From Malacoraja senta (taxonomy: Eukaryota): 64,000 nucleotides of DNA. The DNA is taken from positions 24,926,001-24,990,000 of the forward strand of contig CM075989.1 of NCBI GenBank assembly GCA_038087875.1. The letters run 5' to 3'. The translations under genes were made by a program, and so were the position numbers. The notes under the pieces were generated by a model. It was given only the letters and a program-made list of their open reading frames with translations. It was not told the DNA's origin and ran no database searches. Positions 715 through 56,286 of the stretch are shown piece after piece. Within the stretch, counting starts at the first letter, position 1. Every line of letters starts with the position of its first letter.

Positions 715-1245
715 GAGTTAAACCGAAGATAGACACAAAATGCTGGAGCAACTCAGCGGGACAGGCAGCATCTCTGGAGAGAAGGAATGGATGACGTTTC
801 CGGTCGAGACCTTTCTTCAGACTGAATCAGTGGAGAGGGAGATACAGAGAAGGAAATGTAAGGTGTGAAAACGAGACAAAGGGAATGGAGATCAAGGAAA
901 ATGTAGAGGATCATTGTTGGTATTGAGAAGGAAACAAGAAAGCAAACTGAGATAGAATGTAAACAAGGACAGTCAGACGAGTCGGAGAACTGGGAATGGG
1001 GGGGGGGATGGAGAGAGCGGGTAAGCAAGGGCTACTTGAAGTTATGGAAGTCAATGTTCATACCACTGGGGTCTAAGCTGCCCAAGCAAAATATGAGGTG
1101 CTGTTCCTCCAATGTGCGCTGGGCCTCACTCTGACAATGGAGGAGGCCCAGGACAGGAAGAGCAGTGTGGGAATGGGAGGGGGAGTTAAAGTGTTTGGTA
1201 ACCGGATGTTCAGGTAGGTTTAGAAGGACTGAGAGGAGGTGTTCA
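715..1245 (-). mobile_element. Penelope-like element (Neptune-type) 3' fragment: GIY-YIG endonuclease C-terminus followed by terminal repeat (pLTR) with hammerhead motif
   Basis: EHLLSVLLNLPEHPVTKHFNSPSHSHTALPVLGLLHCQSEAQRTLEEQHLIFCLGSLDPSGMNIDFHNFK* is typical of vertebrate PLE GIY-YIG ends; followed by CTGAAGA-AAGGTCTCGACCG-GAAACGTC (820-793). Confidence 0.85.
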
Positions 1246-5745: not shown

Positions 5746-6039
5746 GAAGAAACGGATTTATTGTTTTTAAAGTCAACACACAGTTTCTGTAAATGGAAAG
5801 AAAATAAAGATTAAGGTACAGATTCAGAACTCTCACTAGCTGGAGAAATAGCCCATGGAATCAACACACCGTAGCTGTGATTTATTACCATTAACTAGAG
5901 AACATGGAAATAATCTGATGCAAGCAACTTGAGTTCATCTAATTCATGTATCGATGGGAACCACTTTGGGTCCTAAGTTCTGGGACTATGTCCACAAACA
6001 AGACGGACTTGGCCGCGCGATCTCCCGGTGGCCAAACAC

Positions 6040-6510
6040 CCTCTCCCATTCTGACCGTTCTGGCCTGGGCCTCCTCCGCTGTCAGAGTGAGGCCCAACTC
6101 TAATTGGAGGAACAGCAACTCATATTTCGCTTGGGCACCTTACAACCCAGCTTTTCAATTTAACTTCAAGTAACCCTTGCACCCCCCTCTCTCCGTCCCT
6201 CCCCCACCCAAGTCATCGTACTAGTTTCACTGTCGTCCTGCTGAGTTCCACTATCTGTACCACTCGTTAGCACCTTCTCCACAGCCAACAATGGACCATT
6301 GTGGGCTCTACCTTCCCTTGACCATCGTTGCGGACTTGGATTTGTCCTTTTGCATATCTTTCATTCATTTGATCTCTGTGCCTTTTCATATCTTTCATTT
6401 CCCTCTCCCCCGACTCTCAGTCTGAAGGGACTGAAACGTCACCTATTCCTTTTCTCCAGAGATGCTGCCTGACCCGCTGAGTTACTCCAGCTTTTTGTGT
6501 CTATCTTAGG
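6040..6510 (+). mobile_element. Degenerate Penelope-like element 3' fragment (GIY-YIG end plus pLTR) in the intron upstream of the IL16 coding exon
   Basis: GGCCTCCTCCGCTGTCAGAGTGAGGCCCAA...TTGGAGGAACAGCAACTCATATTTCGCTTGGG...AACTTCAAGTAA is homologous to 1032-1170; the hammerhead stem II is deleted. Confidence 0.75.
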
Positions 6511-19760: not shown

Positions 19761-20337
19761 AGTGAAATAAGACGTTAGTCTAAGACTGAGTCGGAAAACA
19801 ACTGCAGTTCATTTCACTTCAATTCCAACAAGTTCTTCTCAAGGCTCCTACATAGGCGAGAAGTCCGATCACACCAAGATCACAACTAATCTCTTTTACC
19901 TTGGTGAAATTAGATTTTATTGTTAAAAATCTTCAGAAGTGTCAACCAATGTCACACAGTTATGGCTAAAACAAACAAATCTTCACAGAGCAGTTGTTAA
20001 TTCAGAAGAATAGACTGTATTTGAAATGCGGAATGAAGAACAGACTGAAAAACTTCAACAAATACAGAGTTCAATTTATAATCCCATTTGTGTTCATAAA
20101 TTGCTAAGTGCTCCTTTTTAACTGCATCCACCTCAAGGGGGGTTTATTAGAAGACATTAGTTCACCTTAGCTCTCAAATCCACATCTAAATGTTATGTCT
20201 TCCTCCATTTCACTGTTCCCTATTACTGAAACAATCAGGCATAGCCTTGCTTATCAGTGGCTTGATAACAAATACAGTCTCACATTAACATTTACACACT
20301 GTGTAATGATGCAAATTCACCATGCATTATTGCAGGC

Positions 20338-20538
20338 GAGGACACAAAGTGCTGGAGTAACAGGCAGCATCCTAGAGAACATGGATAAATACCCTATTGG
20401 GTTGAGTCTGAAGACGGATCCCAACCCAAAATTTCACCTATCCATTTTCTCCAGAGATGCTGCCTGAACTGTTGAGTTACTACAGCACTCTGTGTATGTT
20501 GTGTATTAAGCAGCATCTGCAGTTCTGTTTCTACATTT
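20338..20538 (+). mobile_element. Fold-back pLTR-derived mini-element with 16-bp TSD
   Basis: Exact direct repeat ATGCATTATTGCAGGC at 20322-20337 and 20539-20554 around inverted pLTR halves. Confidence 0.75.
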
Positions 20539-22800
20539 ATGCATTATTGCAGGCTTGTTACCTCTCACTTAATTACGCACACACACCATGTTCCCTGTGT
20601 CAGGTTAGAGACATCACTAAACTAGTGATCTCCCCAAAGGCTCAGAATGAATCGGGAAATCTTTGCAGATTTGTCTCATCTGCTCTATTGTGTAAGATGA
20701 CAAATGGATAAGGACACAACATTCTCAAAAGAAAGTCATCAACTACTTCCCTGACCTCCCCAATAAGGTGTTTTAGAAGTCTCAGGGATATGTTCCTTCA
20801 TTAGTTGAGCCACAGATTGCAGGAGCTGGGAGGTTCTGCTGAAACTCGCTACACTAATTGGGTCACGGTCTGAGTAAAGTACACAGTTCCAAGTCACCTC
20901 ACTAGAAAGTGGTGCAGAGGTGATTCGTGAGATTGTTGCCAAACTAGAGACCTTTAACTATGGGTAGTTTTAGATAAGCTAAGGCCGCTTTCTCTGGAAC
21001 AGAGCAGGTGGAAGGGGTACTTAATCGAGGCGTATAAAACCACGTGGAAACATCTTGAGTAAATAGGCAGGACCTAATTCCTATAACAGAGAGATAAAAA
21101 ACAATGGGGGATGGATAAAAGTGATTGATAAAAGGACTCGAAGGTCAGGAAGTTTTGATACTCAGAAGAGCGTTACAAGTTAGGAGGTCGCTGCATGAAA
21201 GGATGATAGTGGCAGGAACTCTCACGTTTAAGCAATAGTACAAGACTATAGGAGCAGGAGTTGGTCCCCAGGCCCTTTAAGACTGCCCCATTCTTGAATG
21301 AGACTGTAGCTGATCAGTGCTGGGGTCAGCTCCTTCCCCCATAACCCTCAATTCATTGATCTCCCAAAAAATTATCCATCCCCACCTCAAACATATCGAC
21401 CTCTATCACCTTAGGGAGCAGAGAATACCGAAGATGCTCCAGAGATGGGCGAGAACTTGAAGAGCCAGGCTGCAGGGTCAAGGGCCTGGTTTGAGTTTGC
21501 TCTAGATTTGGCAAAGTCGACTGTGCTGCAGATATTCTGGTTCCATAACTTCCAACATGTGCTGCTGGAATTGTTATTATAAATGCTCTCACTGCCTTCT
21601 TACTCAACCGTCAATCTGGATTGAGTTAGTACCACTGGTGCCTGAATTAGAGGAATGTGGATTCATGTGTGGGCACAAGGTGCTGACTGGATTCCCAATG
21701 CTATCTTGAGGGAGCTCTCCTCCACTTATGGGAAGTCAAATGCTTCAGGCTATTATTGTAAACTAGTCTCTAATAAACCAAATGGGCAATTCAGCAGAAC
21801 TTTGCCCAAAGGAAATTCACTGTTTGAAACTTGATTTCATAAGGCATACTTGAGGTCAATCAGATAGATGCACTTAGAAACATAGAAAATAGGCACAGGA
21901 GTAGGCCATTCGGCCCTTCTAGCCAGCACCGCCATTCACTGTGATCATGGCTGATCATCCACAATCAGTAACCTGTGCCTGGCTCTCCCCATACCCCTTG
22001 ATTCTGCTAGCCCCAAGAGCTCTTGAAAGCTAGAATCGGATGAAAGACAGAAAAACACTAGAGTCATAGAGTTTTAGTCAGCGTGGCACACAGGCCCTTC
22101 GGCCCAACTTGCCCACACCAACCAACAAGTCCCATCTACACTAGTCCCACCTGCCTGCGTTTGGCCCACATCATTCTAAACCTGTCCTATCCATGTACCT
22201 GTCTAAATGTTTCTTAAACGATGCCTAATAAATACCAGAAAGCTGTGTGTGAAGCATCAACATTCCCGTGGACTAGCTGGAATGAAAAACCTGAATGTGT
22301 GCCATTTTTTGTGCATTTGGAAATGCCTGCTCAATGGGTTAAATAGCAAATTTTGTGTTTTCCTTTCATAGTCAAACCTGCCCTCCCTGTGGCCCACACG
22401 ATTAACTGCAGTAGATGGGCTGAGGAGAGCGGAGGGCTGTGGGTGGCATGGCCACGTGATCTCACTTAAATCAAATCTGCAGCTAAATACCTAATTGATC
22501 ATTTGAAGATAAAACAAATTGTTGGAGGAACTCAACAGATCAAGGAAGATGTGGTGGGAAATGGATTTTGGGTCGAGAAGATAGGTCCAATCCCAAACTA
22601 TTGTCTTTCCATTCCCTTCCACAGATGCTGCCTCACTCACAGAGTTCTTCCAGCAATTTATTTTTTGCTCGAGACTCCATCTTCTGCACTCTGATTATTT
22701 GTACTTTAGGTTTAAGATGATAATGAGAATTAGAATGAATTCCATTATTGACAGAGTCAAGTCCACAAACCTGACCCCATTTTAATAGATTTACTTAATG

Positions 22801-23347: not shown

Positions 23348-26300
23348 CTGCAAAACGCAGAAAATATTGCTGCTGAATTTTGGTTCAATTATTTCATATT
23401 TTATTGCACGAGCTTAAGAGTTTTGATGGAAGTAAAGTTTATCCTCACTGGACTGGACTCACACGGCTCCACCATTCAGTTAAATAGACGGACAAGATGG
23501 GCCGTTATGACAGATTTTGTGGTAGTTTCTGATGTATCAATGCTGAGGATGAGGGGGACCTCATTGAAACTTACCGAGTAATGAAAGGCCTGGATACAGT
23601 GGATGCGGAGAGGATGTTTCCATTAGTGAGTGAATCTAGGACTAGAGAGCACAGCCTTAGAATAAAAGGATGTATGTTTACAAAGGAGTTGAGGAGGAAT
23701 TTCTTTAGACAGAGGGTCATGAACCTGTGAAATTCATTGCCACAAACAGCAGTGGAGGCCAAGTCTTTGGGTATTTTTAAGGCAGAGATTGGCAGATTCT
23801 TGATTAGTAGGGTGTCAAGGGTAATGGAGAGAAGACAGGAGATTGGTGTTGAGAGGGAAAGATAGATCAGCCATGATTGAATGGCGGAGTAGACTTGATG
23901 GGCCGAATGGCCTAATTCTACTCCTATCACTTATGACTTTAATATAAAAGTTTGAAATAATTATTTGAAAATAATAATTTGAAACTCTGAAAACTCGTAC
24001 TAATTTGCTGTACTTTGTTAAGCAATACTTACCAAAAGGAGTGCTGCTGAAAAACTGCTAAAGCTTGATTGGTGCGGGTATGGTTGATAAGTACTTTTAC
24101 GTTAGCCTAGAAAATCAGAAGTAAAAAAATCACATGATACCAACCCCACCGGAAAAACAAACGATGCACCTTATTCATATCTAAACGGATGGGATTTAAA
24201 GGCACAAACATTATACAATTTGTATAGGCCAATAGTGAAGAACTGTGCATAGTTCTACAGCATGAAGAGATATGAGCACATTGTAAAATGTCCAAAGAAG
24301 ATTGGCAAAGTAGCTATTCGTATCAAAAAACATTGTTTAATTCACAAGGAAAAATTGAAGAATGCCCAGATAGATGTCTTTAAACATTTAATATAAAGAG
24401 GGACTGAAGATGTTTCCTCTCAAGAGGAAGAGGCTGCATTGGTTTTGAGAGGTGTAGTGTTGAGAAAGCTTTAAATAATTGTTACAAAGTAAACATTAAC
24501 TATAAAATTAAAAACAAAACCAAGGCAAATAATTTTAAACTTTTGTGAATAATTTAAAGGCATAAATATACCTAAAAATAATGACAGATAAAGTGAACTT
24601 TTCTAAAATTACCTTTGAAATGAAACCAGCAGCTCAACTTCTCCTCTCTCCCATCGGGCAAAAGGTACAGAAGTGTGAAAACACACACCTCCAGATTGAG
24701 GGACAGTTTCTTCCCAGCTGTATCAGGCTACTCTGCCATCCTATCACAACCAGAGAGCAGTGCTGAACTACTATCTACCTCATTGGGGACCCTTGGACTA
24801 TCCTTGACTTTGCACTAAATTGGGGACCCTTGGACCTCATTGGGGACCCTTGGACCTTGCACTAAACGTTATTCCCTTATCATGTAACCATACACTGTAA
24901 ATAGCTTGATTGTAATCATATATTGTCTTTCCGCTGACTGGTTAGCACGTAACAAAAGCTTTTCACTGTACCTTGCTACATGTGACAATAAACTAATCTG
25001 AACTGAACCCAACTGAAATGAGTAGGGCCACACTAGGTGTAGTGGTTTTGAGTGGCGTAAAGCAGAGTTGTTGTTAATGTCCAACCATGATCTCGGAGAA
25101 CGGAGAATGTTGGTTGAGTCTTGTGATCTACTCTCCCTTCTAGTTATTAAGCTCTTATTAGATCTGGATTCCTTGGATTAAGATTCAGCATTGATACAAT
25201 CACACAGATTGTGCTAAATTTATCAAAGCTCTCCACTGGAACCAAGGAAAATTACATAATTGGAAAATCACTTAACTCACATGAGGTTAAGCTACACATA
25301 AAATCACAAAATCAATGGAAACTTGCAACTTCTTTCCCAAGAACCATGTGAGGTCTCAAATGTGCACCAAGGCACACTTAGCAATCTATCAGACATGAAC
25401 ATAACAATTTTACGTCTTGTATTGCAGTTCTCATATTCAATGAACTGCATTTTTTAGACAGAATAATACTTTAAAATCCATTAAAGATTCATTAAAAAAT
25501 GTGTCCTTGGCATCTTCATTATGCCTGTAAAAATTCCTTAGCATGTGGCACAGTGGCGCAGCGGTAGAGTTGCTGCCTTACAGCGCCAGAGACCCGGGTT
25601 CGATCCTGACCACGGGTGCTGTCCATACGGAGTTTGTACGTTCTCCCCATGACCGTGTGGGTTTTCTCCGAGTGCTCCGGTTTCCTCCCACACTCCAAAG
25701 GTGTACAGGTTTGTAGGTTAATTGGCTTCTGTTAAAATACCCTTGTGTCTGGGATATAACTAGTGTACAGGTGATCGCTGGTCGGTGCGGACTCGGTAGG
25801 CTGAAGGGCATGTTTCCACACTGTATCTCTAATCTAAACTAATATTTGGCCAGCAGAGATTCTTGATGCCAGGGGAGTATTGAAGAATACATCGAAGCCA
25901 CAGACATTGGAAAATAAAGGAAATCACTCAATCTTTGGAAATCAACAAAAAACACTAATATTTTATCAAAGACCAATTCTTCTGTAGCACTGAAAGCTTT
26001 CAACTAGATCCATATAATGTTCAGCACAGAGTGATGAGATAGATTACATATATGTGCTACATTATTATTCAATGTTATGTTTCCTACAACATTGGAGAAG
26101 GCCATTCAGTCCATTGAGTCTATGCTGGCTCTCTGAGCAAAAGATAGACACAACAAGCTGGAGTAACTCAGCGGGCCAGGCAGCATATCTAGATAGAAGG
26201 AATGGGTTATGTTTTGGGTTGAGACCCTTCTTCACACTTTGTTTAAACCAGCATCTGCAGTTCCTTGCTACACAATCTCATTTCCCCATTTATTTTCCCT

Positions 26301-29300
26301 CCAGACTATTTTCTCGAATGTACTCATCAACTGATTCTCCCTATCGCATGCCTACATTTGGGATCATTTGCAGCAGACAATTACCTATTAACCAGCATGT
26401 CTTCATGATGTAGGAAACCCAAACCATTACAGGATCATACCCAGCTGTGAGGTAACACAACTTATAGAAACATAGATAGAAACATAGAAAATAGGTGCAG
26501 GAGTAGGCCATTCGGCCCTTCGAGCCTGCACCACCATTCAATATGATCATGGCTGATCATCCAACCCAGTATCCTGTACCTGCCTTCTCTCCATACCCCC
26601 TGATCCGTTTAGCCACAAGGGCCACATCTAACTCCCTCTTAAATATAGCCAATGAACTGGCCTCAACTACCTTCTGTGGCAGAGAATTCCACAGATTCAC
26701 CACTCTCTGTGTGAAAAATGTTTTTCTCATCTCGGTCCTAAAAGATTTCCCCTTTATCCTTAAACTGTGACCCCTTGTTTTGGACTACCCCAACATCGGG
26801 AACAATCTTCCTGCATCTAGCCTGTCCAACCCCATAAGAATTTTGTAAGTTTCTATAAGATCCCCCCTCAATCTTCTAAATTCTAGCGAGTACAAGCCGA
26901 GTCTATCCAGTCTTTCTTCATATCAGGCTAACCTACAGAACTGCTTACCTGGGAATCTTCTACACATTTAATCTAAAGTTTGAACAGTGAACACTTTTAC
27001 TCTTTATTACAAAGTTAAGTTGAAGAAGGATTTTCAATGACAAAATGTCCATACTGGTACTGGGTATCCATCGTACTCAAGTCGCATCTGTGGGTCCAGG
27101 TACAAGACCTGCCAGCAACTCAGGAAGGAGAGCTGATCCATCAAATTTACTAGTTGCATCCGAGACTTCTTGGCAAATTTTAAAAATAATTGCATATCAC
27201 TTGTCAGAAATAGCTGGAAGAGAAGAAGCATTTGTATTTCAGTGCAATGATCATGAGACATCATGAAGCAATTACAATTGTTTCCCTCACCTTTTCTTCC
27301 AAATACCTAATTGCTTTATTACAAAATATCATGTTATATTTTTGGAACCATCAGAAAGTGACTGTTTGTATTGTTACCTGTCCTGAGAGCCCTTCCAATG
27401 TTCTGAGGGTAAAGTTCTGTCCATATCGAAGAGGATCACCTTTGCAACTACCATCAACACTGATAGAAATAAAAGTTAGTGAGTATGTGAAACACAAACA
27501 ATGTAAAAAGTTATCATTAAATCAATAAAAAATAATGTTGCAATTCATTTGATCAATTAGCTTTGGGGTTTAAGTTAAGCTACGCGGCACAGTGGTAGAG
27601 TTGCTGCTTTACAGCGCCAGAGACCCAGGTTTGATTCTGACTACGGGTGCTGTCTGTACAGTTTGCACGTTCTACCAGTGACTGTGTGGGTTCTCTCCAG
27701 GTGCTCCGGTTTCCTCAAACATTCCAAAGACATGCATGTTTGCTGACTTTGCAGGTCTGACATTTCTGTCCCGGGTCTCCTCCACTGTCAGCGTGAGGCC
27801 ACACACAAATTGAATGAACACCTCATTTTTCGCATGGACAATTTACAACCCAGAAGTATGAACATTGATTTCTCTAATTTCAAGTAACCCTTGCAATTCC
27901 TCTCTCCCCTACACAAGTCAGCCTGCTAGTCCCACTGTCCACATCCCTGTATCCCTTTATTATCACCTCAAGAAAGTGTTTGGATTCAGATTTACAGGTC
28001 TTTTACACCAGGTTGGCATTGTCAAGATTAGTTTCACCAGTAGAGTGTAACTGGCCTTCACCTGTTGAATGGTCACAGACGATAATGTGCTGTATAACAA
28101 TATCAATTTATGTTCACCTCTTCCATGTTTACATAGCCATATTCATTCTTTTAACGTGTAAGAAAGAACTGCAGATGCTGGTTTAAATCGAAGGTAGACA
28201 CAAAATTCTGGAGTAACTCAGCGGGACAAGCAGCATCTCTGGAGAGAAGGAATGGGCACCGTTTCGGGTCGAGACCCTTCTTCAGAGTCTATTAACTCTA
28301 TTTCTCTTCCCAAAGTGGCCTAACCTGCTGAGTATCTCCAGCACTTTCTGTGCTTTTTGAGATTTCCAGCATCTACAGGGTTTTTTTCACTATGTGTTAG
28401 TGTAAAGAAAATGTTATATTAAAAACATTGGCTGCTCAGAAAAACAGCCACTTTTGTCATATAATGCAGAAGGAATGTTATTAACACAAAATTAACAGAA
28501 TGTTGTTAAAGACTAGACTTACCTTGTGATAATAAAAGTATTTCTCATGCAAGGGGTTAGGTTCGCACTGCCACATACATCACATGGAGAATCAACTTGT
28601 TTGCTAGTCATAAATCTGCTTTGATCAATGTTCATTGTCAGTGCCATGGGGGAGCGAAGCGGATCGCTGGGATGGTTCTGGTCGCTGCCTGGATTTATAA
28701 GTAACACTGCGTCCCCAAAATGAATATGCCCGTCAGCATTTTTGGCGAGCTCAGTCTAAATAAGCCAGAAAAGCAATTATTGGTTAATGCAAGCTATGTT
28801 CTCCAATGTGAAATAAAGCTTAAATAATAACCGTCGGGAATTTATTACATGAAATGTAGAAACACAGAAAATAGGAGGAAGAGTAGGCCACTCGGCCCCT
28901 TGCACCTGCTCCACCATTCAACACATTCATGGCTGGTCACAGTACCCTTCCTCCACTCATTAATCTCTTTGGCACAAGGGCCGTGTCTAGCGTCTTCTTG
29001 GATATATTTAATGATATTTAATGACTTCCACTGCCTTTTGTGATACACAATTCCACAGATTCACCTCTGGAGTTTAATCCAAACAAATGTGCATGGAGTT
29101 GAAAGGTCAAATGTAAGGGGAAAATATACAGTTAATGGCAAGACCCTTAACAGCATTAATGTACAGGGACCAAGTCTACAACTCTCTGAAAGTGGTGACA
29201 CATATAGATAGAGTGGGAAAGAAGACTTATGGTATGCTTGCCTTTATCGGTTAGGCCGTTGAGCAGAAGGATCAGGAATTTATGTTGGCACGGCAGGACT

Positions 29301-32300: not shown

Positions 32301-35300
32301 GCTAACTTTGGATGTCACAAGGATTTGTTTGATTTAGTAGTCGATATGCTTGCATTGCTTATTGGCATGTCAAGCGTAACATCATGTGAGTACTTTTAAA
32401 GACATTCTAAAACCTGTAAAATTACTCTCTGTCCATCTAAAGGTAGAGGTAGCATGTTTTTACACAACAATTGGATGAAGTTTAATAACTAACACACAAC
32501 GGTTGGAACTCTACATAATAATGCATCTCCACCATGGCCAATTTTAACCCATCATTCACATAAGCAAAGCAATTGAGTATAAACTGTTAAGATTACACAG
32601 TATTTTTTTTTAATCAATAAAGCATCAAGACAAAGGTAGTCTGTTACAGGTTTTCGTTAGTGGGTCAGCAGTGGAGAGAGTTAGGAGCTTTACATTCCTG
32701 GGTATCAACACCTCAGGTGACTTGCCCTGGGCCCAGCACGCACCTGTACATGTAATCACACCTATACTTATTTGGTCACGTCCCCGAATACTCTAACGAA
32801 CTTCTACAGAAGCACTGTAGAAAGTACAGAGTGGTTGTATCACGGCATAATGGATCACCCCTTGCACTACCACCGACTTGTTTTCTAAATGCATCTCACA
32901 CCAAAGTCTTGCTTTTTGCAGTCTTTTTCTTATCACAGTCTTGCAGAATTTGTGTAATTTATGTATAATTTGTGTTTCTGTGCGCTGTCTGTGTCTCTGT
33001 GCCAGTGATGCTGCTGCAAGCAAGTTTAGTTTAGCGTAGAAACAGGCCCTTCAGCCCACCGAGTCCGCACCAACCAATGATCACCAGTACACTAGTTATG
33101 TCCTACATGCTAGGATTTACAGAAGCCAATTAACCTACAAATCTGCACATCTTTAGAATGTGGGAGGAAACCGGAGCACCCGGAGAAAACCCTCGTACTC
33201 ACAGGGAGAACGTACAAACTCCACACAGACAGCATAATAAGATGATATTCCAGGTACTTAATCAGAAGAGTCCTCTGAAATTAACTTCCGCCCTCTTTTG
33301 TTGCTCAACACAGCTTGCCAGAGGGTTGCATATTTTATCACCCTGGTATTGAAGTAGTCCCAGATCACTGGATGTGTGGAAGGTGCCCTAACCTGTATCT
33401 TCCAAAGATAGACACAAAATGCTGGAGTAACTAAGCGGGTCAGGCAGCATCTCTGGAGAGAAGGAATGGGTAATATGCGGCCTGTCCCGCTGAGTTACTC
33501 CAGCATTTTGTGTCTATCCTCAGAGTAAACCAGCATCTGCAGTTCCTTTCTACACATTTGTCTGTAGCTTCCAAGGCTGGGCCATTTGCACTGACAATTA
33601 CAGCGTTTTGATTCCATATGAGATTGAGACAAAAGGTTTGGACACGCTAGAGGTAGGAAACATGTTCCCGATGTTGGGGGAGTCCAGAACCAGGGGCCAC
33701 AGTTTAAGAATAAGGAGTAAGCCATTTAGAACGGAGACGAGGAAACATTTTTTCTCACAGAGATTGGTGAGTCTTTGGAATTCTCTGCCTCAGAGGGCGG
33801 TGGAGGCGGGTTCTCTGGATGCTTTCAAGAGAGAGCTAGATAGGGCTCTTAAAAATAGCAGAGTCAGGGGATATGGGGAGAAGGCAGGAACGGGGTACTG
33901 ATTGGGGATGATCAGCCATGATCACATTGAATGGCGGTGCTGGCTCGAAGGGCCGAATGGCCTAATCCTGCACCTATTGTCTATTGTCATACAGGGATCA
34001 GGCGCTGCCCAGGCACATTGAAGGAGCCTTTAGTTGTAAAGACAATCCAAGGCTTTCATCTACTTTTACATATTTGTTTACAATATTAGTCTTGGTGATC
34101 ACTTCCATCATGCACTCCATACATTCCATGTCTGTAGTCACTTCTACTGTATCCACTATCAACCACTATCCCCTCCCAATTGTTTCCCAACTGACATCAC
34201 CTCTACCCTTCTCCATTATCCAGACCCTTTACTTCCAAGTACCAACATCCACCCACGCCAGTATCAAGCATTTGTTATAAAGATAACAAAAAAGATCATC
34301 TCTCCTCCAATCCTCAATCTTTATATAATGTCCTGATGTAAACAACCACTAGATGGGGTCTGTGTACTGAACATTGGATTCTAATTTCACATTGCTGCAT
34401 TTAAGGTAATTCAGATTTATAGACCAACAAAACAAAGGATATTAAATGTTTCTATCACAAGGAAACATAAGATGTGGTAAGATTTTTACAGATAAGAACA
34501 ACACCCATGTAAAAATTAGACAGATTAAACATGCTTACTTGCTAGAGTGGTGGAATTATCTCTGTTACAGTGAGAACGGTCGAGATTGCAAGTAAATCAA
34601 AATAACTGCAATATGCAATAAAGTGAGCTTTGGTATATATAAACTGAAGCAATGTCCAGCAAAAGATTTCCACCCAGAGAGTACAAAGGAGCAGCATCCT
34701 CTCTAACATTTAATTGAGGTGTCCGGTGGCAATTGTGGGTCAGTTTAACAAGTTATTTACTGGGAAAAGAAACAGTCTTCGTCACAGTAAAGTCTGGGAA
34801 TATGCTACAGCAATTATGGAAAAAAAAGATGTTTCATTTGCCATTAGCATGGAAAACAAGCTCCCACAAAAATCTTCCCAAAGACTCACTCTGAGTGTAT
34901 GGCCTACTTTCATGGGATTCTTTGTGATGTCACAATTTTACAGCAACTTCTGTACATTCAGTAAAACATCACAAAGTGTGCTCTACAGGAAGTCACGCTC
35001 AGACATTGATTATGTACGTTACCCAAATTCAAAATATACAATGTATAACTTGGAAAGATGACTATTGACTGAGGTTTTGCATTCCACTAAGTGCTCTTTG
35101 TTTCTGTAAACAAATATACTATTGCAGGAATTTGATGAATTACACATTTACTACTGGGCGTGCCCCCTTTATACATTGAGGCTGGCACACAAACAACTGC
35201 TTTCCAAAAGAGCTAAATGAAGACATTAAGTATTTATTGTTACATCTAACAGTTTGTCCAATATGCTTTAAGTTAAGATTGAATTTAAAATGTCCCAGAG

Positions 35301-36738: not shown

Positions 36739-36771
36739 GGCGGCCGAGTGCAGGCCGGGCCCGCGCGTCCC

Positions 36772-36785
36772 GTCGCCACGGCAAC
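36772..36785. promoter_or_regulatory. RFX X-box 1 (GTCGCCACGGCAAC)
   Basis: Close match to the palindromic X-box GTTGCCATGGCAAC, 34 nt upstream of the ATG of a ciliary gene. Confidence 0.8.
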
Positions 36786-36816
36786 CGGACACGGCGCCCT
36801 CTGTCCCGCGCCGGGC

Positions 36817-36830
36817 GCTGCCATGGCGAC
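36817..36830. promoter_or_regulatory. RFX X-box 2 (GCTGCCATGGCGAC; minus strand GTCGCCATGGCAGC)
   Basis: Second X-box-like palindrome, 45 nt from the first. Confidence 0.7.
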
Positions 36831-37827
36831 GGGCCTAGTGCTGCAAGGCCTAGTGCAAAGCCTCGGGCCCGGGCAGTGGGACCACTGGGCTGCGGCACCC
36901 GGGCAGCGGGGTTCGATGGAGCGGCCCGACCAAACGCCCGTCTCCACCCAAGAAGTCAGCTATTCCTTCTCTCCAGAGATGCTGCCTGTCCCGCTGAGTT
37001 ACTCCAGCATTTTGTGTGTTTTTTCAGTGGAGACCAGCACCTGCAGTTCCTCTCTGTCACACACAGTGATTGTCTTGCCTGCTATCCGGTCAAACCATCC
37101 ATACATGCTCAAACCATGCAGACTATGGTGTCACAGTTACAGAGAAAGTGCAGATTTGAACAAGTATTGTTGTTTCAACTTATTGATTCCCCCCACATTT
37201 TATTGTACATTATCCAAGTGTATTGCATTTACAGCCTCATGCTGCTGCAAGTAAGAATTTTATTGTTAAGAATGTGGAAACATGGAACTACAGATGCTGG
37301 TTAATACCAAAAGGTTAAAGTATCATTCATTGAAAAGGACACAGAGTGCTGGAGTAACTCAGCGGGTCAGGCAGCATCTCTGGAGAACATGGATAGGTGA
37401 CGTTTCACACAGTGCTGGAGTAACTCAGCAGGTCAGGCAAAATCACTGGAGAACATGGATAGGTGACGTTTTGGGTCGGGTGCTTCTTCAGACTGATTCT
37501 TGCTGGGAGAGGGGATTGGTAGGGTGGCAGGTAAGAGGTGGACACTCCCTCTATCGATTATATCCATCCATTACCTGAAGGGCTTTGTCCTGCCTCTCCC
37601 TCTTCCACCAGAACTTCATTGTTCCCTCATTGGTGCAAATGATAATTAGACATTCTTGACTCTTAAAAGGATCACGGAATGGTAGTATGGGAATTGGGAA
37701 ATCATCTTTATTATCCATATATGCATACATGGCTGTAGAATGAGGGCAGGAGTGTCAGTGTCCGTTCTAGTTACTGGGTGAGACTGGCAATGGTTTCAGG
37801 AGTGTGACTACGTTCTGTTAAACCCAG

Positions 37828-42072: not shown

Positions 42073-45000
42073 AAAAACAGGCACAATATCACAACACACA
42101 TAGATAATGTGTAATAAAAATTCAAATAAATTAATAACCCCAATACTAGTGCAAAAAAACCCTAAAGTCCTTTGTGCAACCGAACACAGTCCACAATTCA
42201 TCAGTTCAAGTATAGTTCATGTATTGTTCAAGAGCCTGATGGTTGTTGGGAAGAAACTATTCTTGAACCTGGTGGTCACAGTTTTCATACCCCTATGCCT
42301 TCTTCCCGATGGTAGAAGAGAAATGAGAATGTGGCCAGGGCAGTGTGGGACTGACGCCAGCTGCCTTTTTGAATCAGTGCTTCCTATAGATATTGCTTAA
42401 AGGACCAAACAAGCCAGCTGGCTACAAGCCTGGACTGATCAGAAGTCCGATCCAGGTGTTGACACAGAGTTCGAGCAGCAAATAATTTATAAGAATAAGA
42501 AGGAACCGCAATGACATCTACACAGTTCCTTGAAGGTTTAAAAGGAAAACAGCTGATAGACTGTTTGCCATGGCATGAGCATCCAAACGTAGGGGCCACA
42601 GTCACAGGGTGACAGATTGGTCAGTTTGGACTGAGATCAGAGTAAATGTCCTCACCCTGATGATTATGTCATGGGGAACACTGTGTACAAGACTGTGATG
42701 GATTGATTTTGGGCACGATGGGACTAGGGGACTGGGTGGGGAAATAAATATAATAATATTTATTATATTTTAATATCATAAAAACCATGATAAAAAATGG
42801 GGGAATATGCATGATGCCTTCTCCTGATCATATTGTTTTATTGGCTACATGGTTTCATGAAGTTAAAGCAGAACATATAATTCCCTTTGTTCTTCGTTAT
42901 TTAACCCGATTAACTTCAAATGATTAGATATCAATGTAACTGAAATAAAGCAGGAATAAAGTGATGTGTTAGTTTTCCACTCTCAATTGAAAGGCAGGAA
43001 ATCTTCCTTTATTGTTCAAGATCTGATAGAGTGGGCAATGACCTTTGCATTAAAAAAAAAGTCAGTATATATGGATAGATTGAAGGAAAAGTGACATTCT
43101 GTAAAACCTCATAAATGGAGCTCCGTGCGATCAAACCGAATGAGGACTTTATGCCCTTATCTTGGTTGCACAGGAAACCCACCCCATCATGGTGGGAAGT
43201 TTATCAGGATTGTCTCAAAGCAGCAAATTATCTAAATGCCTCAGGGGGAAGCAAATGAACTGGGAGGCATCAATATAGTCCAGACTAATGACCAGCCTCA
43301 CAAATTATCAGGCAAATGCTATTTGATTCAAAAAGGGAAATTTTGCTCCAAATCTCTTCATCCTAAACCAGGATGGCTTGCAGCATGGAGTATAAGTTTA
43401 CATTAAATATACATTTACTGCAAAGTTATCCATGGATGGAATCTGAACAACTCCATAATTACAATGACTTTCTGTGACACTGCTTCCCTCGTTTCTAGGG
43501 AGCTGTGCCTATTTAGGATGCTTTCAATCCCACGTCATGTCTGAGGTACATATTAATTATTTACACATTAAATCTATGAGAGATAAAATGCATTTATTTT
43601 GAACATTTGTTTTACAAAGTTGTTGCAGTTCTGTAGTATCATGACTTTTAAACAATTTAAACGCTGACTTTTAAAAAGAAATTAAAGTTGAGAATTCTAC
43701 AATCGTATTTTTGTGCTGCACTGAAAATTGTAATAAATATGAAAATGAGTGAACATAAGTTATACATTTACAGACCGCATAAGGTGTCGTTCCGGCCTTG
43801 TTAATGCCCAGTTTGGGCTCCAATTGTATTGTTTTTGTTCCAATAAACAATGTAACTAAAAAGTCATATTGAGAATATATGGCTGATAATATGAGTTTCC
43901 TTTCAAATTATGTAGCAGTGGGAGAAACAATAGGTCGGGTGGAAACTCACACATACTCTGCAAATGATAATTGCCTCAAGTCAAGAGAGGATAGTTTAGT
44001 AGCAGTATTTGCAAAAAGATGGGAAGTAAGAATTTTGGATGAATCCATTCAACCGTGAAAATTCAGTTCATAAACAAAGGTGGATGAACTAGGTCCAACA
44101 ATGACTTAGATGCTGCTGCACCCGCTGAGTTTCTCCAGCATTTTTGTGTACCAACAATGACTTGACTGACTGGGGAAGGAGAGTACCAGATAACATAAAT
44201 AAGGTCTGTAATTTTTAAAGTCAGAAACAGCATTGCACAGCACCACATGTGTTTGTGTTACAGTCTAATTTATATGGAGAATAAAATAAAAATCATGGAA
44301 TTTTCATGTCGATCTCAAATTCCGCTTTTTGTTCTGTGGTTCTCTGTGCGTGTAATTCTTGATACAGAGGCCTGCGTGTGTGTCTGGTCTGCATCTCTGG
44401 AATTGCCATGGATGCCAGAGAGGCTAACACCGTCCACAGGCTACCCGTGCAGAAGTACTGTGCTGGTGAGATTAAAGGGACCTTCCCTGAGCAGGTCTCG
44501 GTCCAGTGCCCTAGATAACCAGTAAGTAGTCTATTTGCCTGATCTTCCATCAAGCTCCCCACAACGCTCACAGAGACAAATAACCTCTTAGTCCTCGCAC
44601 AAATCCCTGGCCCCTCACCTTCATGGCTTTTCTGAACCTGCTCCATTCTGGACTTATCTCCTCAGCCTTTCACAAAAGGAAGGCCTCATCTCATATAAGG
44701 TCTGTTTAGTCGTGCTCTTGAGTTTCCTAGAGGTGGGGTTATGAACAACATATTTGCACCACACCATAATTACAATAGACAATAGGTGCAGGAGTAGGCC
44801 ATTCGGCCCTTCGAGCCAGCACCGCCATTCAATGTGATCATTGATCATCCACAATAATGTACATAATGCGTCTTGGCAGAGACTGGTAAAATTCTAAACC
44901 TAAATTTTCACCAGAAGACTGACCTGTTGCCTTTGATGTTTATCAAAATTCATTTAATTTATAAGGAAACTAGAGACACTAGATGATTTTTTAAATCTCA

Positions 45001-46339
45001 AATGTGCATAGTTATGGTGTTGACTCCATCTGTTTTGAAGCAGCAACATTTGAAGCGATAGATTACTGCCAGCTCCTGCACATTCCCTGCTACCACTTCT
45101 CACGGGTATATTTCATTTCTCCGTTGGAAGCTCCTACATGTTACAACAACCAAGTAATCCCAGAGAAATGTAATGCAGTTCATAGCTGGGGTCACAGCGT
45201 TTGGAACTGGGAATTAAGCTGTTAAAGGTTGAGGCTGGTCCAAAAAATGGGAGAGGAATTAGTGAAGGTAGGAACTATATTGCTGTAAGTGTTTCCCTTA
45301 AAGCAATCAATTCCTAAATACAACATTAATGTACTCAGTGATATATTACAGATAACTGCCTAGAAATTCAAGAGAGAGCTAGATGGGGCTCTTAAAGATA
45401 GCGAGATAGCGGAGTCAGGGGTACTGATTGGGGATGATCAGCCATGATCACATTGAATGGCGGTGCTAACTCGAAGAGCCGAATGGCCTAGTACTGTACC
45501 TGTTGTCTATTGTCATCCCTGGTGAGTAGCAGAGTACATTGCACTGGCACAACTACATACAGCATTACAAGTCAGGATGGGTTTATTGCCATTTGCATGT
45601 ACAAATGGTTTATTGCCATTTGGGCAACATTGACATTGTGAGCCCAACTTCCTGAAAGTCCACAATAAAATTGAAACACATCAAAGAAACCCGTGTAGTG
45701 TGCGGTTGAGTAATTGGCAAAGAATCAAACAGTAAGGGCTGCCAGCTTGTCGCTGCTCTCGTGAAGGAGGAAGATTTTGTTCATTGAATTTGTGGAAGGT
45801 AATTTTGTATATTCTGGAGGTTATTTTGAAACGCAAAAGGTAGTTACTAGTCATCTCCACTTGAGGTCTCTGATCGATCGTTCAGCAGAGGAGGCATGCT
45901 GGGACACACTGGAATGCACAAGAGAACTAAGATTAACAATAACAGGAGAAGAACCAGGGAGAGCAGGAACTGCAGGAATAACCACAGCTTACTACACCCA
46001 AACCTGCAAGTACAAAGTGAGAAGAGAGTGAGAGGTGCAGTGTGCTAAAGGCTACATCCTCCTACACGATTGGATAGGTCCCTTTTCTACAGAGATGCTG
46101 CCTGACCCGTTCAGTTACTCCAGCTTTTTGTGTCTATCCACGGTGTAAAGCAGCATCTGCAGTTCCTTCCTGCACAGATTGGATATGTCTCCTTGAAGTA
46201 ACAAACCACGTGGTCTCACAAGATTCAGTCACAAAAGGTTCCCACAGATGTCTGTCTGCTTAATTAGTGGCTATCAAGTTACCACCGCCATCAATCTGTT
46301 TGCCTTACAATCCTTCCAGTTTCTACTGGAGATTGAAGT

Positions 46340-46367
46340 CTGAGGAAGGGTCTCGATCCGAAACGTC
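46340..46367 (+). ncRNA. Minimal type-I hammerhead ribozyme-like motif inside a 98-bp solo pLTR insertion (46333-46430)
   Basis: CUGAGGA-A-GGGUCUCGAUCC-GAAAC-GUC; the insertion is flanked by an 11-bp direct repeat TCTACTGGAGA (46322-46332, 46431-46441). Confidence 0.55.
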
Positions 46368-46845
46368 ACCCATTCCTTCTCTCCAGAGATGCTGCCTGTC
46401 CCGCTGAGTTACTTCAGCTTTTTGTGTCTATCTACTGGAGACTTGTTCAGGATATCAACATTGTCCACCCAGAAACATACAGGTGACAGATGCCAAGGCA
46501 GACAGTTTGTTAGCTCTGCTTGTGATGGCACCAGTTGGGATGAGTGGTTGCCCACATCTACAGCTCCTGCTGGACTTTCCAGTTCGTGGGTGTCCTCATC
46601 ACTATGCATGTAGCAAATGAAGAATCCCCAAGAATGCTAATCAATGTCAACGGTGTCTTCCTGTCACATGTCAGTGTGGTGAAACCACAAAGATCTTTAT
46701 GTAGCTGTACACAGTATTAACAATCCCCTCATTCAGTGGCAGTCTGTCCTCCTGAATCAGTCTGCATCTCAACATAGACTGACTTCTGACTCATCAGAGA
46801 AGAAGAATCCCGCTTAAAGCACAGCCAATGGTTGAGGCATCTAGA

Positions 46846-51593: not shown

Positions 51594-51649
51594 CGTTTGG
51601 TGCAGGAGTAGGCCGTTTGGCCCTTCGAGCCAGCACCGCCATTCAAATA

Positions 51650-52004: not shown

Positions 52005-52154
52005 AATATGATCCTGGCTGATCATCCAAATCAGTACCCCATTCTGGCTTTCCCCCCATATCCCTTGATTCCCTTAGTCCTAAGAGCTAAATCTCTCTCT
52101 TGAAAACAAACAGTGAATTGGCCTCTGTGGCAGAGAATTCCACAGATTCACAAC

Positions 52155-52425
52155 TTGGAGGAACAGCACCACATATTTGGCTTAGGTAGTTTACACCCCA
52201 GCGGTATGAACATTGACTTCTGCAATTTCAGGTAGTCCTTGCTTTCTCCCTCCTTCCCCTCCCCTTCCCAGCTCTCCCACAGCCGACTGTCTCAGCCTCT
52301 TCCTTTCTTTTTCCCGCCCCAGTGACATCAGTCTGAAGAAGGGTCTCGACCCGAAACGTCACCTATTCCTTCTCTCCATAGATGCTGCCTCACCCGCTGA
52401 GTTTCTCCAGGATTTTTGGCTACCT
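52155..52425 (+). mobile_element. Penelope-like element 3' fragment with intact hammerhead core
   Basis: LEEQHHIFGLGSLHPSGMNIDFCNFR*, then pLTR containing CTGAAGAAGGGTCTCGACCCGAAACGTC (52333-52360). Confidence 0.8.
52333..52360 (+). ncRNA. Minimal type-I hammerhead ribozyme-like motif (PLE-associated)
   Basis: Core CUGAAGA, extra A, stem II GGGU-CUCG-ACCC, GAAA, palindromic ACGU stem III, GUC cleavage triplet. Stem I pairing is weak. Confidence 0.6.
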
Positions 52426-55324
52426 CGAGTTGTTTCTGTTGTGTTTTTAAATATGTTACATAAGTTTTGACGCTTTAAGTTTCTTCAGAACAGGTGGCAA
52501 TTTAATAGATACGCACAAGCAGCCACTTCCTGATTTTAGCAACCTACTCCTTGCCAAAAATAGCTTCTGCAGTAAAGATTTAGTCATTACTGGCATAAGG
52601 GAAAAGAAAATCTCGAAATAACCTGTCTGCATTACGTAGCATGCAATGCTGCAATCTTTTATTAATATTAATGTGGGTATTTCAGAGCTGAATGCAGGAA
52701 AAGCCTCAGGCAGCTGATATTGCCAGCCTTTGGATTAAGCACTGGTATATAGTTGGTGATTCCTGAAAAAATGGTGAGAAAAGGTTTTTCACAAGGTTTT
52801 TTATTATGAGTAGAATTATGGAGTGTGGAAATATGTTTAGGAAGACCTTTTTCCCATGGTCTCTTATAGATTGTAGGGGACCTCTCCCCCCCCCCCCCCT
52901 CCCCTCCCCTCCCCCCCTCCCCTCCCCCTGTTTTATGGCTGTTGGCAGATCAATTTCCCTCCTGGGAAAAATAACGTTCTATCGTATCGTATCGCTTGAA
53001 CATATTCACCAATTTTGATCAATATCAACAAGTCTCTTCTCAGTATGTCCAGGGAATAGTTATTTTTGAAATGACAAATTCATTGACAAATTTGATTGGA
53101 AAGAATAAAACGTTACAAGTGTCCTCGCAGCCAATATAATGGGTGGATCACCAGGAGCTCAGCTCTGTGAGTATAGTGGGTGGATCACCAGGAGCTCTGT
53201 GTGTATGTGGCAGTGACAACACTCTTTAATTTAAACAAGTAACCACTTTGAGGTTTGTGGTAAGTTCAGGGCTCATTTAAAAGAACGATGTATTATTAAA
53301 AAGAACATTTAAATCTTCATTGCAGGAAGTAAACATGAAGCCAAACAGAGAATACAAAGTGAACTATACTGGAAGAATAGAACAGTAAGTGAAGGTTTCC
53401 ATGGGGATGTTGGCCAGAACGACTACAATAGAACAGGAATATCTGCAAATTGATGAACTTATAGGAAGAATCGAATGATGAAACTCAGTAGTTTTGACCA
53501 AAAACAGAATCTACAAAATAGTGAACAATAACAGACAACAGAGAAATGGAAGAATTTGGTGAAGGCAGGGATGTTTTACACATATTGTCCAGGAATATGT
53601 AAGAGATAGTAGAAACTAATTTATTTGATAACAACTTTATATATATAATTTTTGATGTGCAGTATTTATTATAATGTAGGTTAGATGGTTACCACAGCTA
53701 CCACAAACTGCAAAATGATAATTGGATAGACCTCCATCGGCCTTTATTTGGTGAACACTTGGTGATGAACGGTTAGTGAAATGAGTTCCATTGATTTCAT
53801 ACGGTCATAGTTATAGTCATACAGCGCAGAACAGGCCCTCCAACCAAACTTGCCCATGCTGACCATGATGCCCCATCTACATTGGCTCCACCTGCCTGCG
53901 TTTGGCCCATATCCCTCTAAACCTTTTATATCCATGTACCTGTCAAATGTGTTTTAACTTTTTACAATAGTACAGTGAATTGATATGGTGGAATTAGCTT
54001 AATAAAGCAAACATTGCCATATAATACATCATGAGCACTCAGCAGAGGATAAATTCTAATAGTTGGAATAGATGTTTGGTTGTGATTAGCTCCTTCTTTA
54101 AATGAGGGAGCATTCCTTACTTACATTTTGCGATTCCTGTTCCAAGACTCTAGAATCCCATAAACAACAGAATGATAAACTCAGAGTGTCAAATCTTCAT
54201 GCTAACAGTGGAGGTATAGATCTTGACCCAATACTCCTACTCTGGGTAGACAAAAATGCTGGAGAAACTCAGCGGGTGCGGCTGCATCTCGACGTTTTGG
54301 GTCGAGACCCTTCTTCAGACGGGTCTGCTCTGGGTAGTGCTTTAGGACCTTTTATATCTCATTTCAAAGACAAGAATTTCACACTGAAGTGTCAGACACG
54401 ATCAAAGCATGTGGAATGATAACAGAACACACAAACTTCACAAAGAATGTGAAGAACTACCTTCCACTGGGCCAGAGATGAAACTATTTATACTTAACAC
54501 ATTTTCCATTTTTCTCTTTGCACATTTAAAACTTGTTGACTGAGCTCCCTCGTCTTGAAGGAGAATGTCAGGTCAGGCCAGTTCAGTTTAGTTTATTGTC
54601 ACGTATAGCAAGGTACAGTGAGAAGATTTTGTAGCGTGCTAACCAGTCAACACAAAGACAATACATAATTCCAATTGAGTCAGTTACAGTGTATAGATAC
54701 TTGATAAGGGAATAATGTTTAATGCAAGGTAAAGCAAGCAAAGTCTGATCAAGGATAGTCCGAGGGTCACCATAAAAGTAGTCTGTCGTCCAGCACTGCT
54801 CTCTGGTTTTGGGCATTGCATAAAAGGTCATTGATAGCTTTAACTTGTTCGTTGATAAATATGAATGGTCTGAACATTTCCATCATGACTGCGCTTCACT
54901 GACGTGCTACTAGATTGTACTGTTTAGCAGTCCTTGGACTGAATGCATTTAGCAGATGTTTCATGAAGACTGTCCCTTTAATGAATCACTTTGTCGGTGG
55001 GGGCAGGAAAGCACAATCACATGGTTTCACCCAAACTGTCTCTGAAAGGAACGGGCGTCTCCATTATTTTTCCCGGTTGACTGGGCAACAAAACTATTTT
55101 CTTTTGTTTTTTTCCTCCCTCCTTAAATTCCCTTCCCCTCCCTTCATTAACCGGCTGTTGTGCATTTTGAATAGTTAGTTACATAAGAATACCACAGGCT
55201 GCCTCAGATTTGGCGAGTTCCCTTCCTCATTGGTACAGAGAGGCTGGTACTGGAGCAGTACTGTGGACCCAGTGAGGGTACCTGCCTGCTGCCAGCAACT
55301 CCACCAACGTGCCATCCCACGTGG

Positions 55325-55730
55325 CAAAAAATACAAATGTTGCAGGAACTCAGCCAGTCGATCGGCATCTGTGGAAAGAGAAACCAATGAACGTTTTGGG
55401 TCCGGGATCCTTCCTCACAATTGGGGGGAAGAGTGGAGGGGGTTAGTCTTCAAAACCGAGCTGGGGGGAGGCGAAACACTCTATGGAGATTGGACAACAG
55501 AGCTGGACTACTGACCATTTGGGGGTATTTTGCAGAGATTCAGTAAGAAAGGTACATCGGTGTAATAATGGGAACTGAGAAGAAAAAGTCTACCTAGAGT
55601 TTGAAAATTCAACATTTATTCCAGAGGGCCACAAAGTGCCCAGACGGAGAGTAAAATGTTGTTCCACCTGTTTATATTGAGCCTCCCTACGATAGTGGGC
55701 AAGGATGCAGCTGAAGAGGTCAGTGTAGGG
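55325..55730 (-). mobile_element. Old Penelope-like remnant (GIY-YIG end plus decayed pLTR)
   Basis: ORF 55590-55799 ends ILAHYRREAQYKQVEQHFTLRLGTLWPSGINVEFSNSR; pLTR-like sequence at 55325-55420. Confidence 0.6.
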
Positions 55731-56286
55731 GTGGCATTTAGAAGTAGTGACCATTGAACCTTTCCCAGCTCCTGCTCTTACGGCCCCAGTCCACACCATA
55801 CAACTCCCCCCCCCTCATATCCCACCCTTCCCACCCCCTCATCTCCCCATTACTCACTACACACCCTCCCCCCCCCTCCTCCCCCCATGCTCTCATTCTC
55901 CCCAACCCTTCCCCACCCCTGCTAGGGTCTCAGGGTGGATATTTACCACTGCCCTATGCACCCTCTCAGCTGGATGAAAAATATCCCAAGCACAAATACA
56001 CTCCCTAGCGACTGGTGATTTAATACAGCATTACTAATCAGTTTCTGTGGTCACTGCTTTTACAGACCTTGTTACTAGCTGGTTCCCTATCTTATAAAAA
56101 TGCCTACCCTTCAGGAAAGAATATTTAATTGTAATTAACTACCTTGTAGGGTCCCAATTGTGAAAGTTTTTACAGACATGCAACTTGTTCTACTTGACAA
56201 CTGACAGAGTGGGGCGTTCATTCATTACTGACACATTGCCAGCATTCAGCACTGTAGCTTTCCCTGCATTAATTGTTGATGAGAAC

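Follow-up and report, generated by a model that had tools for sequence, protein, structure and literature searches.

What is the short repeat that recurs throughout a 64,000-nucleotide (nt) stretch of the Malacoraja senta genome (assembly GCA_038087875.1, contig CM075989.1, forward-strand positions 24,926,001 to 24,990,000; hereafter the window), and what is a hammerhead-ribozyme motif doing in it? An earlier note on this DNA had inferred a prolific non-autonomous, ribozyme-bearing retroelement mobilised in trans by a Penelope-like element (PLE) of the Neptune type. The best explanation of the data presented here is that the repeat corresponds to the 3'-terminal module, that is, the pseudo-long terminal repeat (pLTR) end, of several Neptune-type PLE families, and that the main source of its short copies is abortive 3'-terminal insertion by these families, a reading to which we give a probability of roughly 0.7. 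A separate non-autonomous master is possible but unneeded.

The module, about 100 nt long, is the most abundant dispersed repeat of the window, as had been claimed, with a self-BLAST depth of up to 37 versus 13 for the next family. A profile built from the window copies returned 49 matches at E<=0.05 (five Markov controls gave 0, 0, 1, 0 and 0), and the 46 matches at E<1e-3, three weaker ones being left out, merge into 35 loci that cover 4239 bases, or 6.6% of the window, at a density of 0.55 loci per kb. The degenerate hammerhead motif matched 11 times with up to three mismatches, versus 0.00 in 100 shuffles. The Rfam scan of the window gave no hammerhead match and three weak hairpin matches, which scored below the gathering threshold and were dismissed as chance, and the exact 28-letter motif had no match in the metagenome contigs. 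An ARAGORN scan found no tRNA gene in the window, and therefore no tRNA-type head of a short interspersed nuclear element (SINE) is seen on the family. A 46-codon open frame across the module is within chance expectation; its agreement with the C-terminus of the shark read-through model P0151 (7/10 residues, pairwise E 0.027) is a lead only. Literature searches confined to open-access PMC and bioRxiv, at the level of listings and abstracts, turned up no account of the family, and the Repbase or Dfam libraries may already contain it.

The copy that best displays the module is the following insertion.

46322..46332, plus strand: left target-site duplication (TSD), 11 bp (8 bp plus 3 bp common with the element end), from the sequence and flank scoring
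46333..46430, plus strand: 98-bp 5'-truncated PLE terminal insertion with hammerhead and conserved core, without tail, from the profile
46338..46369, plus strand: minimal type I hammerhead, from the sequence, a strict scan and the consensus of PMC4209133 Fig. S3
46431..46441, plus strand: right TSD, from the sequence

The 98-bp insert is enclosed by exact 11-bp direct repeats (46322-46332 and 46431-46441), so that the coordinates and repeat previously given for 46322-46441 are correct; the duplication itself measures 8-11 bp, because the last three letters of the repeat equal the element's own end. Within the ribozyme motif, helix I pairs 46338-39 with 46368-69 (2 bp), CUGAGGA (46340-46) is followed by an extra A (46347), helix II pairs 46348-52 with 46355-59 (5 bp, one G.U, 2-nt loop), and GAAA (46360-63) leads into a palindromic ACGU (46363-66), with the predicted cut between 46367 and 46368. 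Contigs of four DNA-like runs were aligned over 43900-46800. One contig of a relative, here called G (run X23), has both TSD copies at 46322 and is devoid of 46346-46426; since both copies are retained there, the insertion is older than the split from G, and its hammerhead has since been lost in that relative. In runs X20 and X22, contigs pass from the element end into the flank to the right of 46430, the element being represented by just 27-28 letters, fewer than the 31-letter rule requires; these were not scored as bridging.

The link to PLEs comes from five remnants of an endonuclease (EN) C-terminus, each retaining just the last 26-70 codons.

715..1245, minus strand: longest PLE remnant, with the last 70 GIY-YIG codons (1035-1244), stop, 212-nt C/T-rich spacer, near-intact hammerhead (793-820) and core
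6035..6510, plus strand: PLE remnant with EN end (6035-6170), spacer of about 250 nt, hammerhead with stem II deleted, and core
27753..27940, plus strand: EN end (27753-27884) and spacer start, broken before any hammerhead
52149..52425, plus strand: PLE remnant with EN end (52149-52232), stop, 98-nt spacer, intact hammerhead (52333-52360) and core
55333..55745, minus strand: old PLE remnant with EN end (55593-55745), spacer of about 170 nt, decayed hammerhead and core

In four of the five the module follows on the same strand, 98-250 nt past the stop, the fifth ending within the spacer. The order of parts is EN stop, variable C/T-rich spacer, minimal hammerhead, conserved core of about 65 nt and optional tail of about 36 nt. 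The GIY-YIG remnants followed by the motif that the earlier note had listed are real, except that the copy behind 6035-6170 has lost stem II. The remnants at 27753-27884 (+) and 55593-55745 (-), as well as the tail, the head-to-head pairs and the two TSDs enclosing such pairs described below, are features beyond that note.

The 70-residue EN remnant has 232 protein matches at E<=0.001 (best 6.8e-20), the best being gene models of Leucoraja, Rhinoraja and Hypanus. Just upstream of the matched part, the best skate, ray and shark homologues carry a CxxxxCxxC linker and the GIY-YIG motif, and this adjoining N-terminal part scores as Pfam GIY-YIG, mostly below the cut-off. Longer homologues (P0110, P0078, P0151, P0152, P0154) carry a reverse transcriptase (RT) with a DKG motif, and open reading frames (ORFs) with the order RT(DKG)-linker-EN occur in gene models of Stegostoma, Rhincodon, Chiloscyllium, Hypanus and Mobula. 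Taken by itself the EN remnant had no Pfam match, and a word-index search with a 57-residue piece of it gave no matches; an ESM Atlas search returned clusters plus one GIY-YIG lead at 0.89. As described in PMC8557442, a CX2-5CxxC linker between RT and EN marks Neptune and Nematis, not Poseidon. The family would accordingly be an EN-bearing PLE of the Neptune type, an assignment made from the linker of the homologues and without a tree, Nematis sharing that linker. The previously proposed origin in a Neptune-type PLE terminal repeat with a minimal type I hammerhead is supported.

A metagenome check of related PLE loci was confined to the 18 of 80 whose match reaches the EN end; a minimal hammerhead lies 148-795 nt 3' of EN in 7 of these 18, and on the reverse strand in none. 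Three invertebrate-type loci, L015 (786 nt after EN), L006 and L009, have hammerheads with a longer palindromic helix III and a helix I of 5-8 bp, which, judged from these helices, are likelier to be active than the skate form. Pieces of this PLE ORF are also included in the gene models P0003, P0011, P0109, P0158 and P0204, four of them named skate or ray and the five annotated as neuromedin-U receptor, ATP synthase c, NYAP-domain, kinase-domain and chitinase-domain proteins; these are probably cases of annotation read-through into PLE copies.

That the short copies are independent, TSD-forming insertions, as had been proposed, is supported by flank scoring, in which 6 of the 35 loci score >=11 versus 0.17% of 1190 mismatched flank pairs. 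Besides the insertion at 46333-46430, the following loci are concerned, the last entry being a related junction.

44095..44163, plus strand: 43-bp core fragment (44108-44150) without hammerhead, exact 13-bp TSD, empty site in a relative
46068..46189, plus strand: 96-bp fragment (46081-46176) of core and tail without hammerhead, 13-bp TSD with one mismatch
54240..54337, minus strand: 78-bp insert (54250-54327), hammerhead with G12 changed to A and a deletion after GUC, exact 10-bp TSD
20322..20554, both strands: head-to-head inverted pair (20338-20538), tail on the plus arm only, exact 16-bp TSD (20322/20539)
33393..33574, both strands: head-to-head inverted pair (33406-33561) lacking a hammerhead core, tail confined to the plus arm, 13-bp TSD with one mismatch (33393/33562)
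26132..26275, both strands: core copy (minus) joined head-to-head to a tail-only arm (plus) at the hammerhead 5' edge; likewise 9841-9959

The six TSD-bounded inserts measure 43, 78, 96, 98, 156 and 201 bp, their 5' ends all differ and three of them have no hammerhead; the TSDs, of 10-16 bp, are unrelated in sequence between loci. A seventh candidate (61262/61373) is A-rich and weaker. In relative G (X23 record 25), 44151 follows immediately on 44094 within a contig that has a single copy of the 13-mer and no further letters at the joint; this empty site, from one contig of one run, proves the 13-bp duplication. All four direct repeats named in the earlier note exist and belong to the six TSD loci, one being proven by the empty site. 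The accompanying statement that the solo copies bear the ribozyme stands for 46333-46430; 44108-44150 and 46081-46176 have no hammerhead, and that of 54250-54327 is damaged (G12->A, 18-nt deletion). This deletion starts exactly past the GUC triplet, a single case that could be chance.

The inverted pair at 20322-20554, enclosed by its TSD, is one insertion event. Ten head-to-head pairs were classified by eye, and in nine of them one arm bears the tail and the other does not (p=0.011 at 0.5); the ten junctions include one with an arm just under the E cut-off, one with a tail-only arm and one spanning two loci, and the count includes one decayed tail. The 3' ends of the copies fall into two groups, near consensus positions 100 and 137. 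The conserved tail of about 36 nt is also the loose-end consensus found behind 46433 in all four runs, with 1821-2318 contigs per run, summed contig depths not being taken as copy numbers. None of the 46 copies has a 5' or 3' end at the GUC cut site, and none of the 35 loci is a tandem with two complete hammerheads, second units beginning at GAAAC. In all four runs, 12-43 contigs per joint (44152, 46138 or 46433 with 46176) link core end to tail end on opposite strands, a tail-to-tail layout that is absent from the window and might stem from self-priming or from insertions that hit the end of the element itself.

Regarding the ribozyme itself, the strict scan finds three cores in the 64 kb, none adjacent to another (46340, 52333 and 62680 on the minus strand). 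Those at 46340-46367 and 52333-52360 are strictly intact, and the third has an intact core with a non-palindromic helix III; 793-820 (-), which has lost the first stem II pair (A.G), is near-intact, all as the earlier note had read the copies it listed. The two intact copies have the core C3-A9, G12-A14, A15.1-U16.1 and H17, and the motif also presents G10.1-C11.1, an extra base after A9 and a palindromic 15.2-16.2. Helix I, previously put at only about 2 bp, has exactly 2 bp in the strict scan; the Culex PLE hammerhead of PMC4209133 has a 2-bp helix I as well, with the same GAAACGUC ending as the skate motif.

Non-CpG catalytic positions are conserved in 227/238 cases, free positions (N7, extra base, loop II) in 69/94 and the rest in 2074/2376, p-values being overstated because the copies are related and aligned to their own profile; G12, which lies within a CpG, is retained in 14/28. 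This agrees with a history in which masters are under selection and inserted copies decay neutrally. For helices I-II in 18 copies, scored on a structure taken from the consensus, 81.6% of cells are paired (4/500 shuffles as high), with three both-side pair changes (115/500 shuffles) and a covariation score of 0.208 (18/500). For the two intact copies, ViennaRNA predicts a pairing probability of about 0 for helix I and <=0.024 for helix II, the best folds using a competing hairpin and being no better than those of shuffles; with pairing predicted so close to zero, the monomer should be inactive. Published minimal hammerheads cleave weakly, as dimers (PMC4209133), 1 of 9 Xenopus dimers was reported to cleave (bioRxiv 10.64898/2026.07.22.740005), and the hammerhead of an anole element requires that element's protein, whose insertion reaction in vitro does not require the hammerhead (PMC11167929). 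In the dispersed skate copies the hammerhead is best read, from sequence, as a mostly decayed passenger.

How could these copies have arisen? Under the favoured explanation, the RT-EN protein would bind the module and nick both target strands, as carried over from the anole Poseidon PLE, and reverse transcription would begin inside the RNA, either at the core end (about 65 nt 3' of GUC) or at the tail end (about 100 nt). Most cDNAs would abort after 40-140 nt, often at the hammerhead 5' edge, and priming from both nicks would yield two cDNAs joined head-to-head, each arm being a separately primed cDNA. The hammerhead would not determine the insertion ends; it would be under selection in the masters, probably cleaving only as a dimer via the ACGU palindrome or with the element's protein, and would decay in dispersed copies, first at the CpG holding G12. 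The priming scheme follows the anole PLE called PAc, in which both strands are nicked and extended and internal priming takes place at two sites separated by one tail-length (PMC11167929). Truncation at the 5' end, a neighbouring inverted copy and a tail of 30-40 bp on one side have all been published as marks of PLEs (PMC8557442, PMC3846280, PMC8969392). The variable lengths (43-201 bp), the lack of a hammerhead in three of the six TSD-bounded inserts, the 0/46 ends at GUC and the existence of EN-linked variants all follow from ordinary 5' truncation of PLE insertions; they speak against the distinct ribozyme-bearing element moving in trans with which we started. The short-copy variants with an EN-linked counterpart, recognised by diagnostic bases, are A1 (with 715-1245), A2 (with 52149-52425) and a third type (with 6035-6510).

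Several points weigh against abortive insertion as the main source. A clear TSD is missing at 29 of the 35 loci, the 64-kb window contains no PLE-type RT, and a full-length skate parent was not seen, no skate-named protein being among the 120 matches listed. The priming model would be borrowed from a Poseidon element, which belongs to another clade. In addition, 11 of 33 5' ends pile up within 11 of 111 nt (p=2e-4, a rough value from hand-classified ends), an excess over smooth truncation that a discrete short RNA would also produce. Finally, the window contains no EN-linked member of subfamily B, which comprises about 13 arms, and some masters may, given this subfamily, have been non-coding. 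One locus of subfamily B is the following.

37273..37496, minus strand: subfamily B "1.5-mer", one unit plus a further one that begins at GAAAC

This junction is found again at 3836, 59321 and 59916, and being fixed at four loci in all it points to a master with an internal duplication.

The pile-up deserves closer attention. Of the twenty arms that retain the CUGA region, classed by eye, 11 have their start no more than about 10 nt before it, 8 continue into C/T-rich spacer-like sequence and 1 is unclear, the tract before 36386 being possibly host sequence. Three causes remain, namely the start of the template RNA, cDNA annealing at the palindrome TCAG-T-CTGA, and RT stalling at the C/U tract. 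The second is partly borne out, the palindrome site ranking 1/518 among self-annealing 13-mers in one copy and 10/463, 12/264, 32/400, 6/275 and 25/157 in five others. A splice acceptor (C/T tract plus CAG) was rejected as a cause, 4 of the 11 copies keeping TCAG upstream of the would-be junction. As for the first, TCAGT at the pile-up is taken by us to resemble an initiator; PMC3846280 refers to a pLTR with an Inr-like motif. It is conceivable, if doubtful, that the pile-up 0-10 nt before the hammerhead is the true 5' end of a template RNA with initiator-like TCAGT, internal priming running off after about 100 or 135 nt. If so, skate PLEs would mass-produce a defined hammerhead-headed mini-insert, with either the 5' pLTR of the elements' own transcript or, in trans, solo copies as its source; among the short repeats of skate genomes this insert might then be the most numerous. 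Such a run-off would explain a helix I of just 2 bp, and the subfamily B 1.5-mer, whose second ACGU lies 67 nt further downstream, might amount to a naturally occurring intramolecular "dimer" in which just one active site is present.

The same pile-up at the hammerhead 5' edge, along with the imbalance between 5 EN remnants and 35 loci and with the fixed junction of subfamily B at four loci without an EN-linked member, would favour dedicated non-autonomous masters, i.e. pLTR-only or internally deleted PLEs whose RNA of about 100-135 nt was copied in trans by the Neptune protein to give most short copies. Trans mobilisation by pLTR sequences has been published (PMC3846280) and non-autonomous pLTR derivatives have been proposed (bioRxiv 10.64898/2026.07.22.740005). 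Even so, we consider such an origin of most copies unlikely: the TSD-bounded inserts share no length, 9 of the 20 arms extend into C/T-rich sequence (8 spacer, 1 unclear), each short variant (A1, A2 and the third type) has a match among EN-linked copies, and truncation with internal priming already accounts for short copies. The two sources can in any case coexist, because every RNA that contains the module could serve as a template. Far less probable is a non-LTR retrozyme, in which tandem units would be cut by the hammerhead into monomers that circularise and reinsert. A type I hammerhead with palindromic helix III, the partial tandems at four loci and the report of retrozymes from one chondrichthyan (bioRxiv 10.64898/2026.07.22.740005) would suit it; against this, no locus holds two complete tandem hammerheads, the three strict cores are not adjacent, and the ends lie at the core or tail end and never at GUC. 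As there is no tandem of whole hammerheads, the repeat in the window falls outside the retrozyme definition given in the 2026 preprint.

The inverted pairs, which form long hairpins, and the weak sub-gathering Rfam hairpin matches could also evoke a DNA transposon like a miniature inverted-repeat transposable element (MITE), the PLE link being accidental. This is hardly credible and, in the window, is ruled out by the variable arms: arm length and junction change from locus to locus, the tail is on one arm, the 10-16-bp TSDs are unrelated in sequence, and the same module follows four of the five EN remnants. A last alternative concerns activity alone and overlaps with the favoured explanation, namely that the repeat derives from PLEs while its hammerhead likeness is a non-functional relic or chance. 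The 2-bp helix I, the predicted lack of helix I and II pairing with its competing hairpin, the missing Rfam match and compensatory changes that do not exceed shuffles all lean that way, but the motif agrees exactly with the published consensus (extra base after A9, G10.1-C11.1, palindromic 15.2-16.2) and its core positions are more conserved than N7 and loop II, which makes a relic or chance likeness improbable.

The window contains other repeats. The second most abundant (depth up to 13) is the 3' end, with a short-repeat tail, of a CR1/L2-like long interspersed nuclear element (LINE), located by self-BLAST depth.

1761-1936, 14020-14717, 21882-22009 and 26484-26718: CR1/L2-like copies
33765-33984, 44775-44855, 45419-45510 and 51599-52088: CR1/L2-like copies

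One such copy adjoins the EN remnant at 52149. A SINE-like family of depth 8-10 (8256-8449, 25553-25822, 27590-27742, 58406-58578) was not called tRNA by ARAGORN. A long, nearly intact LINE ORF2 at 37822-40161 (+), AT-rich and made of two adjoining frames parted by one stop, matches RVT_1 (E 9.9e-42) and zf-RVT (E 2.4e-05) and is probably L1/Tx1-like. Broken LINE copies with RVT_1 and ALKBH8_N matches lie at 16273-17459 (+), 41383-41916 (+) and 49943-51662 (-), and by their appearance we take them to be RTE/Rex-Babar-like. Simple tandem arrays (9420-9500, 11080-11620 and 56190-56600, with a 9-bp unit, a TG-rich unit and a GA-rich tract) give rise to spurious long ORFs. Short tandem repeats at 58991-59030 and 30592-30615 (both minus), each at the 5' end of a truncated copy, have expanded from the GATGCTGCCTGTC segment of the element itself. 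Two family copies (36291-36392 and 36940-37064) flank the CpG-rich stretch 36540-36960, in which 36640-36738 (-) weakly matches CFAP107 (E 0.12) and is a probable first coding exon of a ciliary gene.

Terminal-repeat hammerheads of PLEs have been known since 2014, and cartilaginous fish merely lengthen the list; both truncated solo copies and non-autonomous derivatives of this class are, like the class itself, already published (PMC7229834, PMC4350176). Skate annotations probably list the present family under SINEs or MITEs by mistake. Empty versus filled sites of the family serve as phylogenetic markers, and because its copies are so numerous it offers a natural data set on the origin of inversions and of the one-sided tail, and on the purpose of the hammerhead in PLEs.

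Among known systems, the pLTR minimal hammerheads of Cervera & de la Pena 2014 (PMC4209133) have in common with the skate motif CUGANGA followed by an extra base, G10.1-C11.1, a 5-bp helix II, GAAA-CG-UC without loop III and the position 3' of EN, being also mostly single motifs on truncated PLEs with the second motif on the opposite strand. Helix I has 2 bp here versus 3-5 in most motifs of that paper (Culex, Oikopleura and D. virilis also have 2), the helix II loop of the skate copies is just 2-4 nt, unlike in the motifs shown there, and none of the 56 motifs of its Fig. S3 is from cartilaginous fish. Animal non-LTR retrozymes (PMC7229834; Li, Clavereau & Pollet 2026, 10.64898/2026.07.22.740005), as described in these sources, are likewise non-coding and pLTR-related, with a type I hammerhead, long TSDs and many dispersed monomers, whereas the skate repeat has no complete-unit tandem, its ends are not set by cleavage and EN-linked copies are present.

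The Neptune PLEs described by Craig et al. 2021 (PMC8557442) share with the skate family a C-terminal GIY-YIG and, in the closest homologues, a Zn-finger-like linker, the linker and RT being known here from homologues alone; 5' truncation, partial tandems, an inverted 5'-truncated neighbour and a 30-40-bp tail at one end are also common to both. PAc, the Anolis Poseidon PLE of Frangieh et al. 2024 (PMC11167929), is of a different clade, its first end lies 85-92 nt after the cut (from +26 and +111-118) versus about 65 nt in skate, and the skate module, known from sequence alone, has no start codon at helix II. What the two share is a pair of 3' ends, one tail-length apart and downstream of the cut, and insertion ends that are unrelated to the cut site.

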